From assembly GCA_963693365.1 (NCBI GenBank), contig CAVNZM010000012.1, positions 1 to 64,000 on the forward strand: a stretch of 64,000 nucleotides of DNA, written 5' to 3'. The notes beneath the pieces were generated by a model. The model did no database searches. It worked only from the letters and a program-made list of their open reading frames with translations, and was not told the origin of the DNA. The first letter of the stretch is position 1, and each line of letters opens with the position of its first letter. This document shows, piece after piece, positions 298-13,778 of the stretch. The position numbers and the translations under genes are program-made. Source of the stretch: Amoebidium appalachense (Eukaryota > Protista > Ichthyosporea).

Positions 298-3200
298 TCA
301 ACATAAGCTGCTGTTAGCCTCCGGAGGGTGGTTGGGGTGTGGGAGGTCTGGCTCGCCATGCTGTACCAGTCGTTCCATTTCCGGAACACGAGCTCTGCCG
401 TCTTGTTCCTGGCAGAAGGGAAGCAGGTCCTTGATGACAAAGGGTATTATCTGTGGTTGGTGTGTGTGTGTGTGTGTGTGTGTGTGTGTGTGTGTGTGTG
501 TGTGTGTGTGTGTGTGTGTGTGTGTGTGTGTGTGTGTGTGTGTGTGTGTGTGTGTGTGTGTGTCGTGTGTGTGTGTGTGCGCGTGTGTGTGTGTGCGCGT
601 GTGTGTGTGTGTGTGTGTGTGTGTGTGTGTGTGTGTGTGTGTGTGTGTGTGTGTGTGTGTGTGTGTGTGTGTGTGTGTGTGTGTGTGTGCGTGTGTGCGT
701 GTGTGCGTGTGTGCGTGTGTGCGGTGTGTGTGTGTGTGTGTGTGTGCGTGTGTATGTGTGTGTGTATGTGTGTGTGTGTGTGTGTGTGTGTGTGTGTGTG
801 TGTGTGTGTGTGTGTGTGTGTGTGTGTGTGTGTGTGTGTGTGTGTGTGTGTGTGTGTGTGTGTGTGTGTGTGTGTGTGTGTGTGTGTGTGTGTGTTTGTG
901 TGTGTTTGTGTGTGTGTGCTTGTGTGGGTGGGTGGGTGGGTGGGTGGGTGGGTTAGAAGGGTAGTGGAAACCGGGGTTACATAGTGCATTCTTGTGGGTA
1001 GTACTACCGTGCACACTGTTGTCATATTGTTACACTGTTATGACATATTGTTACATCATTGCTATGCTATGTTAACACTCACATCTCACATGATAACCAG
1101 AATGGTTCCCGTTGCTATCACCATGTATACCATCGTGTTACCATTATGGTATACATACAAATGACACGGGCTGGTTGGGGATGACGTGTGTGCAGGGTGT
1201 GTGTGTGTGTGTGTGTGTGTGTGGGGTGTGTGTGTGTGTGTGTGTGTGTGTGTGTGTGTGTGTGTGTGTGTGTGTGTGTGTGTGTGTGTGTGTGTGTGTG
1301 TGTGTGTGTGTGTGTGTGTGTGTGTGTGTGTGTGTGTGTGTGTGTGTGTGTGTGTGTGTGTGTGTGTGTGTGTGTGTGTGTGTGTGTGTGTGTGTGTGTG
1401 TGTGTGTGTGTGTGTGTGTGTGTGTGTGTGTGTGTGTGTGTGTGTGTGTGTGTGTGTGTGTGTGTGTGTGTGTGTGTGTGTGTGTGTGTGTGTGTGTGTG
1501 TGTGTGTGTGTGTGTGTGTGTGTGTGTGTGTGTGCTTGTGTGGGTGGGTGGGTGGGTGGGTGGGTGGATTAGAAGGCTAGTGGAAACCGGGGTTACATAG
1601 TGCATTCTTGTGGGGAGTACTACCGTGCACACTGTTGTCATATTGTTACACTGTTATGACATATTGTTACATCATTGCTATGCTATGTTAACACTGACAT
1701 CTTACATGATAACCAGAATGGTTCCCATTGCTATCACCATGTATAACAACGTGTTACCATTACGGTATACATACAAATGACACGGGCTGGTTGGGGATGA
1801 CGTGCGTGCAGTGTGTATGTGTGTGTGTGTTGTGGGGGTGGGTGTGTGTGTGTGTGTGTGGGGGGGGGGGGGGGGGGGGGGGGGGGGGGGGGCACCTTCA
1901 TCAGGTCCCTGAGCTCTGAAGCTGTCATGTGCGTCAGCGATGATACATCTGTGTCCCACTGCTTCAGGCCATGGAATCGAGTCATGTTTTTCACGCGATA
2001 GTTGAACTCCGCCTCAAGGCGGTTAGCCTCGACCTGTGCTGTGCGTGACCCCACCCCATATACCTCAGCACAAACCTCTGATATGTAACCGATGTAATGC
2101 TTGATAAGGGTTTTAAATACACCGATCTCAGCCTGATGTAGACGTTCTGCAATTACACCGCGAAGGAAATAAAAGCCAGGGAAATTGACGGTGGCATTTT
2201 TCGCTGGCTGTGCAGAGTAAAAACCAAGGAGGACCTTGCCAGCGGCCCTCCCAGCTCTTGTGTCCGGAAATTCCTGCACCTTGTCATACAGGTCGAGCAT
2301 GAGTTGCTCTGTCCTTGGCTGCAACGGTCTCCACACCTTCGGCATGTGTTTGTTCTTTGTCAGGCACAGGTGACATGGGCATCTGGTCTTGTTGCTGTGA
2401 ATGGTATAAATATAAGCAGGTGTATCCTAGGTAGAAACTAGTGGTTAACCCCCCCCCCCCCCCCCCCCCCCCCCAACCCAACCCAACCCCATCCCTCCCC
2501 CCTGCCCCCTTTCCTACACACGTGCAAACACACAAAAAACGGAACCATATAAAAAAAAGCAGGGGAAAAAAAAAAAAAAAAAAAAGGAATTCGGAACTAT
2601 CTAAATCCACCACTACTAGCTAAATCCACCACCCAACATGTGTGACGTACCCACCACATTACATAGCAACTAGCATACTATCACCCGTCATCCAACGTAC
2701 AAGTTAACCCCCCCCCCCCCCCCCAAAACTTTGAACATTCCCACACACACACCACCCCTCCTCTTCCCCCCCACTCTCCCCCAGACAATTTCTCCCCTAG
2801 TCTATCTCTGTGAATGCAAATTTGAATGTGGCTAAAAACAGAACACTCACCTCTTCAGACATGTTATCTTTCTTCCTTCCGGCCAGTCGGACACGTAGTA
2901 TGACACCATTGGGGCCATCAATCTCCACACGTTGTCGGGGCACCAAGCCCAGAACCCTCCGTCTGCGTTAAGCTGACGCAGAGGCTCGCCGATGACAAAA
3001 TCAAGGATATGGTGGAAGAGGGCCAAACGGGCCTGTGGCAGGAACCTTTCATTGACCTTTGCTCCTTGCTCCCAACACGGCTCGGGTATGTAGGCAATAG
3101 GGATCCTGCAGAGAGATTGCATTCGACTGAGTATCATTTTGTCGGAAAAAACCACTATAACATAATGTTATCATTAGGTAACCTAAGGTACTCAATACGT

Positions 3201-12571: not shown

Positions 12572-13778
12572 AATGCGGCCCCAGCCCAGCCTGTTGTGCT
12601 TGTGTGGTATTTTTTTTTTCTTCTTTTTTCCTTTTTTTTGATTCTTTTTGGTATTTTTTTTGTTTGCATAAGAGTAGTGTTTTTTTGAGATAAAGTAGAT
12701 AGGAGAGAATGGATGCCACCTGGGGTGGTATGTAAGTTGTGTTGTTAACACTCGTGCTGTAGGATGCCACCTGGGGTGGTATGTTAGTTGTGTTGTTTAC
12801 TTGTGTGCTTGATGCCACAAGTACTTAGTAAAAAGAAAAAGTGGCATCATCTTCGTGTCTGTCTGCAGAACTGGAGGGAGGGAGGGAGGGAGGGGGGGGG
12901 GGGGGGGGGGGGGGGATACAAATTGATAACAATATGGTACGGTATGGTTAACATAAAAGTAAAATGTATATACCGAATACCACCCATTTGTTACCAAACG
13001 GGCATGTCAACGTATACAAATGGTATCGTAATGTCGTTTTAATGTTATCCGTAATATATAAATGGTAAACATGTGTCGTTCTCGTGGTATACCTGGGTTC
13101 ACCTTTGGTACATGAATTGTAGAGTTTAGTTACCTGAAGTATAACTCTTTGTATAGCATTGGTGACTCCTGTGCTATCCCGTGGTATACAGGAATTTGGC
13201 ATATTGGTACGAGTGCGTCACCACTATGTAAAATAAAGTTAAATTTATGGCAACACAATGTCAACAAATGTATCCGTTTGATGTCCGGCGTGGTAAGATG
13301 GTGTTACCGTAATGGTATATAATGGTTACCCCGGTATATCAAACAGTTATACCAATATGTACCATTACGGTGTCATTGTGTACCAACGTTGTACAATTAT
13401 GTATGCATTAAAGATACCACGTTTGTAACACTGTATATATTATGGTTACCAGACCGTGTAAAACTGTGATATCATTCTGTGTGACATGCTGGTAACGGTG
13501 TGTTGTACAGGGTGATACCACTGCTATACTGTTACACACAATTGTAACACGATGTTAGCAATCTGTATTTAGGGTTTGTACACTGGTAACATTGTGTAAC
13601 CTCGTACGACAGTGGTACCCACAATGTTATAAAAAGATGACAATGTTACCCTAAAGAGCTCGGGGTGATGTTTGCTGATGTTGAAATCTTTCAATGTCTC
13701 GTGAACAACTCCGATTGCCCTCTCATTAATGTGTTAGTCGTGTTTTACATGACACCTCTGTGCACTCTGCTCCCTTAG

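Follow-up and report, generated by a model that had tools for sequence, protein, structure and literature searches.

A KDM4-like JmjC gene apparently carried by a Plavaka transposon of Amoebidium appalachense: a candidate anti-silencing cargo

We analyzed 64,000 nucleotides of the ichthyosporean Amoebidium appalachense (GCA_963693365.1, contig CAVNZM010000012.1, positions 1 to 64,000 of the forward strand; hereafter the window), which contain the right-hand 13.7 kb of a Plavaka DNA transposon with a gene for a KDM4-like JmjC protein between the transposase and the right end of the element. The JmjC gene very probably lies within the Plavaka element. The explanation that we favor, with a probability of roughly 0.55, is that of a PlavakaB-type cut-and-paste transposon whose JmjC enzyme would erase methylation of lysine 9 (H3K9) or lysine 36 (H3K36) of histone H3, protecting the copies from silencing; the anti-silencing role of this cargo is one that we infer. 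We found no paper that pairs Plavaka with JmjC, while Plavaka elements with TET/JBP, SET or 2-oxoglutarate (2OG) oxygenase cargo have already been published.

An earlier note on this DNA had described a spliced Plavaka transposase on the minus strand and a spliced JmjC gene on the plus strand, head-to-head and 2.8 kb apart, and this arrangement stands: every intron of the two gene models in the window is GT-AG, and the start codons at 5471 (-) and 8302 (+) are separated by 2,831 bp, within which both promoters likely lie (Table 1). Matches to the Pfam Plavaka model (PF18759) run in model order on exons 3 and 4 of the transposase, and their scores of 72.3 and 32.9 bits on successive exons, against a cut-off of 26.3, identify a Plavaka transposase domain; the C2H2 matches on exon 1 are weak (E 0.009-0.5). 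From their sequence, LFSDST in exon 3 and YVSDWPE in exon 4 likely hold the first and second catalytic Asp. The part of the transposase in the window thus has two candidate Asp residues and a C(2)C motif; an exact H(3-4)H is absent, with a single His in LHQAE, and the last acidic residue would fall beyond the window. Exon 6 in its spliced frame meets a stop at 300-298 after 50 amino acids, and the shifted frame, probably the true one by its likeness to a Plavaka motif, is open to the donor; the frameshift could be either genuine or an error of the assembly. Since exon 6 ends at a GTGAGT donor, the transposase gene, and with it the element, most likely extends beyond position 1 of the window. 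The span of 298..13667 first given for the element therefore needs correction at both sides, as an exon most likely ends at 298, in an element that runs off the left edge, and the right end is 13680. Intron 5 of the transposase contains a 232-bp duplication (954-1185 and 1570-1801, 96.6% identical), and both copies are rich in the motif signature described below.

The termini of PlavakaB elements are CATCA..TGATG, with target-site duplications (TSDs) of 2-3 bp (Kojima 2025, PMC12730594), and a terminus of this type is present at the right end, where positions 13680-13670 read inward as CATCAGCAAAC. The sequence CATCAGCAAA begins 4 of the 14 PlavakaB-type entries examined in the supplement of that paper, including the TET-bearing Plavaka-11_AB. 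Within 1-13680, TTTNNTGATG occurs only once, and no opposite-facing terminus of that type was found. The weight of the terminus comes from its position at a junction defined by reads and not from the motif itself, which is common (2 exact occurrences in the window, and 6 with at most one mismatch against 4.5 expected). Four public sequencing runs (X1, X3, X7 and X9) were aligned to positions 12920-15300; among the matches listed, other copies of the neighboring tyrosine-recombinase (YR) element diverge exactly before 13681 in at least 2 contigs of X1, at least 6 of X3 and at least 1 of X9, with no contig of X7 among those listed. Because these other YR copies continue differently exactly before 13681, the right end of the Plavaka element sits precisely at the cut site of a YR element. 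The TGATG at 13666-13670 was considered as the element end and is ruled out by the same junction in favor of 13680. The YR element itself (13681-14873) retains the remnant of a recombinase, 139 amino acids long, and a perfect direct repeat of 90 bp (14227-14316 and 14784-14873); in three runs its contig depth, when summed, exceeds that of the flank by a factor of hundreds to thousands, which probably places it among the most abundant repeats of the genome.

The 0.7 kb inside the right end is repeated, because it is 6 (X1; 178.6 against 30), 10 (X3; 843 against 85.2) and 35 times (X7; about 462 against 13.1) deeper than the flank, contig depth being a rough guide and not a copy number, and the flank contig of X7 differing from the window; X9 has no flank cover. 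Dispersed multiple copies are thus seen for the subterminal zone only, in three of the four runs. The flank contigs are identical to the window in X1 (395 aligned bases) and X3 (455), and the main subterminal contig differs from it at 5 of 490 bases in X1 and 4 of 380 in X3. Since the flank contig is identical and the main subterminal contig is about 1% different, other copies dominate the subterminal reads, and several young copies of the element would give a divergence of this size. We also observed a diverged variant of 13382-13494 (10 differences and 4 gaps over 109 bases), whose depth is close to that of the flank in X1 and double the flank depth in X3, and which is possibly a related subfamily or the opposite end of the element.

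The two genes were also said to share a non-coding signature, and six-mer densities agree with this, less strongly for the transposase introns once composition is controlled. A signature of 25 six-mers, learned only from 12920-13650, occurs at 41.7/kb in the JmjC introns (69 of 1,653 unmasked positions) and 34.8/kb in the transposase introns (47 of 1,351), against 10.9/kb outside the element (437 of 40,021); JmjC introns 2, 3 and 5 reach 37-74/kb. Blocks of equal size outside the element have maxima of 32 and 30, below the counts of the JmjC and transposase introns, and the 69 occurrences in the JmjC introns exceed all 200 resamples of a first-order Markov control (mean 41.9, maximum 67). The hexamer GGTAAC occurs at 1.39/kb inside and 0.14/kb outside (19 in 13.7 kb and 7 in 50.3 kb), with 11 in 12.9 kb when the training zone is removed, so that motifs are enriched in the non-coding DNA of the element as in VANC-type systems. 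The signature in its introns suggests that the JmjC gene did not enter the element recently. CpG depletion, compared by context, gave no clear separation between the element and the host genes of the window. On its right side, the case for a JmjC gene carried by the Plavaka element is well supported, as the terminus at the junction, the repeated subterminal zone, the absence of an intervening terminus and the shared intron motifs agree.

Table 1. Coordinates of the transposon genes, non-coding zones and insertion target in the window
Feature	Position	Strand	Remarks
Plavaka transposase exon 6	298..450	-	One-base frameshift near 415-423; donor GTGAGT at 297-292
Plavaka transposase exon 5	1896..2394	-	C(2)C motif (CHLC); no Pfam match of its own
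Plavaka transposase exon 4	2851..3105	-	Pfam Plavaka model positions 151-236, E 5.3e-08
Plavaka transposase exon 3	3610..3977	-	Pfam Plavaka model positions 42-148, E 5.2e-20
Plavaka transposase exon 2	4291..4434	-	GT-AG, frame kept
Plavaka transposase exon 1	5070..5471	-	Start codon at 5471; acidic linker and, at the N-terminus, a C2H2-like zinc finger
Head-to-head intergenic region, 2.83 kb	5472..8301		Signature 18.8/kb; no PlavakaB-type terminus
JmjC gene exon 1	8302..8602	+	Lys-rich N-terminus resembling a nuclear localization signal
JmjC gene exon 2	8821..9750	+	Entire KDM4-like catalytic domain; Pfam JmjC E 6.6e-17; 930 bp
JmjC gene exon 3	10041..10321	+	Coiled coil, basic linker
JmjC gene exon 4	10815..11123	+	C-terminal region; no Pfam or NCBIfam match
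JmjC gene exon 5	11543..11911	+	Small alpha/beta domain (low-confidence model, pLDDT 53); candidate targeting domain
JmjC gene exon 6	12373..12552	+	Stop at 12550-12552, or 12571 if the poly-C run is miscalled
Subterminal zone	12920..13670		Dense GGTAAC/GTAACA/TGGTA motifs; repeated in the genome; signature 179/kb
Right terminus, PlavakaB type	13671..13680	-	Reads CATCAGCAAA inward; read-defined junction 13680/13681
Insertion target, outside the element	13681..14873	+	YR element cut at its left side; Phage_integrase E 3.7e-08

The KDM4-like identity of the JmjC protein, as first noted, is supported by sequence and structure matches and by the residues retained in the catalytic domain. Of 43 PDB sequence matches, the top 35 belong to the KDM4 family, the best being KDM4D (E 1.4e-09), whereas the best KDM5A match reaches only E 4e-4. 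An AlphaFold model built from a 120-row alignment is confident in the catalytic core and poor in the first 135 residues (predicted local distance difference test, pLDDT, under 50), and a Foldseek search with this model gives KDM4A, KDM4B and KDM4D as top matches (E 1e-11, 24-27% identity). In the alignment to KDM4D, the Fe(II) triad HxE...H is kept (His 9330, Glu 9336, His 9591), as are the Tyr, Asn and Lys that bind 2OG (Asn 9360, Lys 9384). The zinc site, Cys-His-Cys-x-Cys, is likewise present (Cys 9462, His 9480, Cys 9681, Cys 9687); its ligands correspond to C214, H220, C287 and C289 of exon 2 and are near-invariant among the aligned sequences. The Gly, Tyr, Glu and Asn aligned to the KDM4 methyl-lysine pocket are kept too, and the Ser/Ala position is Ala, as in KDM4D. 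From its sequence, the enzyme looks catalytically intact and of the KDM4 type. No JmjC exon matched the PHD or Tudor reader domains in Pfam, and the N-terminus may bear a faint resemblance to JmjN.

A JmjC search of 1.84 billion representatives returned 1,101 proteins at E<=0.001, and identity does not exceed 43% among the 150 best of them. The best whole-domain match among those listed, the Logan protein P0122, has E 5.6e-27 and about 30% identity; its layout is similar to that of the JmjC protein, with a basic N-terminus followed by a single long JmjC stretch. A Pfam scan of 80 of the 150 listed relatives found KDM4-type PHD fingers in five and ARID or C5HC2 in none. A quick tree was built from 126 rows (the query and 125 of the 150 relatives; two repeat-laden proteins are among the 25 left out). 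All five PHD-bearing KDM4s fall into one clade of 63 rows (Shimodaira-Hasegawa-like approximate likelihood ratio test 96), and the query lies outside this clade on a long branch. With JmjC exon 2 as the query, word-index searches of proteins gave no match of near or greater length, and no relative of the JmjC protein was found in viral contigs.

The JmjC gene has six exons that encode 789 amino acids with no internal stop, and the splice sites and reading frame suggest that exons 3-6 are transcribed together with the catalytic exon; without splicing, translation would end at 9761 and yield a protein with JmjC alone. No RNA run was listed as a match among sequencing runs, and although some runs contain 0.60-0.69 of the sequence words, near the exon share of 0.53, we draw no conclusion from this. 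The GC content at third codon positions (GC3) is 0.47 in exon 2 and 0.66-0.87 in the remaining exons, a difference which suggests that the gene is chimeric. The C-terminal ~380 residues could be assigned to no family and had no match in Pfam or NCBIfam. For exon 5, an Atlas lead to PAZ was weak (score 0.90; recognition 1561 against a guide of 2300; 109-124 shared features). A single-sequence model of this exon gave no Foldseek match at E<=0.001; several methyl-CpG-binding domains appeared at E 0.7-1.9 only, and HEPN-like helical chains reached at best a VIA-align Z of 5.1. Nothing credible came from phmmer of exon 5 against PDB, and none of these leads was accepted.

We propose that the accessory gene, expressed as a single six-exon protein and carried by other copies of the element as well, would make a nuclear KDM4-like enzyme that strips H3K9 methylation from the chromatin of the element, its substrate being, by similarity to KDM4, di- and trimethylated H3K9 (H3K9me2/3). 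In mammals and in Neurospora, H3K9 methylation is linked to 5-methylcytosine (5mC), so that once it is lost, 5mC silencing by way of UHRF1/DNMT1 or Dim-2 would be weaker too. All three are encoded by Amoebidium (Sarre 2024, PMC11244446). In the most speculative step, the C-terminal domain or the transposase would bind GGTAAC-type motifs and aim the enzyme at the element in a VANC-like manner, for which the proposal made for PAG3 of Bostrychia offers a further analogy; such motifs could equally be transposase sites.

Several points weigh against this proposal. The identity of the JmjC protein to KDM4s is only 24-28%, JmjN is not detected by Pfam, and the N-terminal region where it would lie models poorly, so the substrate of the enzyme may have shifted. 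The tree contains no host KDM4, viral KDM4-like or KDM5 outgroup, and its query is a long branch; with neither host KDM4 nor outgroup in it, it shows only that the protein is KDM4-like and divergent, and from sequence the JmjC protein can be called only that, without the features of a canonical, vertically inherited KDM4 orthologue. The transposase of the present copy carries a one-base frameshift, and the signature count of its introns, 51 against a control mean of 33.2 (standard deviation 7.7, maximum 57), lies about 2.3 standard deviations above it and within the control range. The terminus motif is common and depth ratios are rough, as noted above; the left end and the TSD lie beyond the window, and the evidence for repetition covers only DNA that begins some 350 bp downstream of the JmjC gene. 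No second Plavaka-JmjC locus was confirmed among 33 pattern matches in metagenome contigs, none was found in viral contigs, and the terminus pattern had no match in metagenome contigs. Moreover, the silencing mark shown experimentally in Amoebidium is 5mC and not trimethylated H3K9 (H3K9me3) (Sarre 2024, PMC11244446).

The strongest rival, which we consider unlikely on balance, is that the JmjC gene sits inside the element as a passenger of no benefit to it, taken from the host pool of KDM4-like genes or from a giant-virus insertion, and perhaps present in some copies only. Donors would be plentiful, as KDM4-likes are numerous in the viral insertions of Amoebidium and also occur, in small number, among its host genes (Sarre 2024, PMC11244446); the low GC3 of exon 2 suggests separate addition; the transmission of TET/JBP genes among transposons has been termed "frequent but passive" (Kojima 2025, PMC12730594); and the family looks young (~99% subterminal identity), so that an intact frame need not mean selection. 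The motif signature in JmjC introns 2, 3 and 5, however, suggests a long residence, and all catalytic residues are kept even though the closest whole-domain protein among the matches listed is only ~30% identical. A bolder variant of the anti-silencing proposal, which we hold to be distinctly doubtful, is that a KDM4 catalytic exon was grafted onto a motif-reading protein of the element, and that the element also shuttled KDM4-likes between the host and giant viruses.

It is improbable, in our view, that the cargo is active but acts otherwise, on H3K36me3 or a non-histone protein or by opening chromatin genome-wide at insertion targets. KDM4s act on both H3K9 and H3K36 (Sarre 2024, PMC11244446), and the low identity, the lack of a detected reader domain and a C-terminal domain with no assigned function leave room for such a role; the pocket positions aligned to KDM4 are nevertheless kept, with the Ala of KDM4D, and motif arrays inside the element fit an action on the element itself. 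We regard as very improbable that two adjoining units are present, either a non-autonomous JmjC element with a decayed left end beside a separate Plavaka or a host gene between related elements. A match of 8 of 8 bases to the terminus (CATCAGCATA) faces inward at 7711-7718, the intergenic signature is weaker at 18.8/kb, and the linkage across 2.8 kb rests on assembly rather than reads. Matches to the terminus with one mismatch are nonetheless at chance level, the site at 7711 adjoins no motif-dense subterminal zone, its flank is unlike the bases after 13680, contrary to a TSD, and 1-13680 holds no viral or host genes. We judged an inner left end at 7711 to be due to chance. A giant endogenous viral element does not fit, as 1-13680 contains two intron-rich genes only and no core giant-virus gene was seen on reading the window.

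The rest of the window contains genes and repeats outside the element. An ALG11 mannosyltransferase gene with many exons lies at 44014-52705 (+); one exon is 98% identical to the EukProt protein P0001, and the named matches below it are nearly all animal (73-84%), as would fit a unicellular holozoan. A type I phosphodiesterase-family host gene lies at 17470-20160 (-). By eye, we recognized a HIT-family gene at 20494-21760 (+), a DEAD-box helicase at 22430-27640 (+), a gene at 55850-59290 (+) in which a BCP-type peroxiredoxin appears to be combined with several AT-hook-like GRGRP motifs, an intronless open reading frame with no evident family at 60500-61340 (-), and broken retroelement-like remnants at 28400-29500 and 63040-63660 that resemble gag and long interspersed nuclear element sequences. 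A small dispersed intronic repeat occurs at 23796-24038, 24923-25034, 36111-36236 and 45834-45972, its copies being 74-86% identical to one another. A tandem array with a period of about 32/96 bp lies at 35550-35870.

VANDAL/VANC is a demonstrated case of anti-silencing by transposons, and TET/JBP, SET and 2OG-oxygenase cargo have been proposed to act in this way; if the proposed role is true, a young repeated element with an intact demethylase would extend anti-silencing to the direct erasure of histone marks. The KDM4-likes of Amoebidium, found on host chromosomes and in giant-virus insertions, would also have a third home in the element, a point relevant to the source of the viral genes. 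The anti-silencing role is approachable by peptide assays and by methylome, chromatin immunoprecipitation and RNA data; Amoebidium grows axenically, and its methylome and 5-azacytidine data are published. A sequence-targeted demethylase, if real, would be useful for epigenome editing.

We found no paper that describes JmjC inside Plavaka or, among those listed, a JmjC/KDM4 encoded by a transposon, in a search that took in few subscription papers and neither the Bostrychia supplements nor the Sarre figures; Sarre 2024 deals with both Plavaka and JmjC, each on its own. The idea of a demethylase acting against heterochromatin is itself not new, having been published for the KDM4-likes of Amoebidium giant-virus insertions (PMC11244446). 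The earlier note had grouped Plavaka with KDZ, which did not hold: Plavaka is placed with EnSpm/CACTA in the CMCT clade (Kojima 2025, PMC12730594). Its statement that fungal Plavaka elements associate with TET/JBP is published in the same paper. Plavaka elements have been published in green algae too.

Compared with known systems, as described in the parts of the cited sources available to us, the element resembles the PlavakaB elements of Agaricomycotina, with Plavaka-11_AB among them, in its Plavaka transposase, large size and terminus identical over 10 bases, and in a Fe/2OG dioxygenase cargo proposed to act against silencing (PMC12730594). Their cargo is a 5mC oxidase in a fungal host, whereas ours is a KDM4-like histone demethylase in a non-fungal one, and the term JmjC does not occur in the main text of that paper. 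In the red alga Bostrychia, giant Plavaka elements (17-19 kb) likewise carry chromatin accessory genes, among them a 2OG oxygenase fused to a putative DNA-binding domain, which lies beside repeat arrays and is proposed to modify the element that carries it (PAG3); the accessory genes are SET/adenine methylase and ParB-2OG oxygenase genes, and none is described as JmjC/KDM4 in the accessible part of the preprint (bioRxiv 10.1101/2025.02.11.637652). In Amoebidium itself, Plavaka elements, a genome that is 50% transposon, 5mC silencing and expanded KDM4-likes have been reported (Sarre 2024, PMC11244446). Its giant-virus KDM4-likes are similarly divergent and multi-exon, with no PHD or Tudor, and were proposed to help foreign DNA escape H3K9me3 silencing, but the published ones sit in viral insertions or among host genes (PMC11244446). 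The present gene is intron-rich, has a long C-terminal extension and is enclosed by a Plavaka terminus, and its neighborhood holds no viral gene. The Plavaka giant repeats described there are intron-poor YR arrays, unlike the intron-rich KDM4-like gene found here.

The VANC of VANDAL (MuDR) elements resembles our system in combining a transposon accessory gene with short motifs in the non-coding DNA of the element (Hosaka 2017, PMC5735166). VANC binds its motifs and causes loss of DNA methylation (PMC5735166), whereas our cargo is an enzyme that belongs to a host family and its binding to motifs is speculative. As an enzyme, the JmjC protein shares with human KDM4A-D and yeast Rph1 the fold, the HxE...H triad, the 2OG-binding residues and the C-H-CxC zinc site, and it departs from them in its 24-28% identity, in its undetected JmjN, PHD and Tudor domains, and in the ~380 extra C-terminal residues that follow the catalytic domain.

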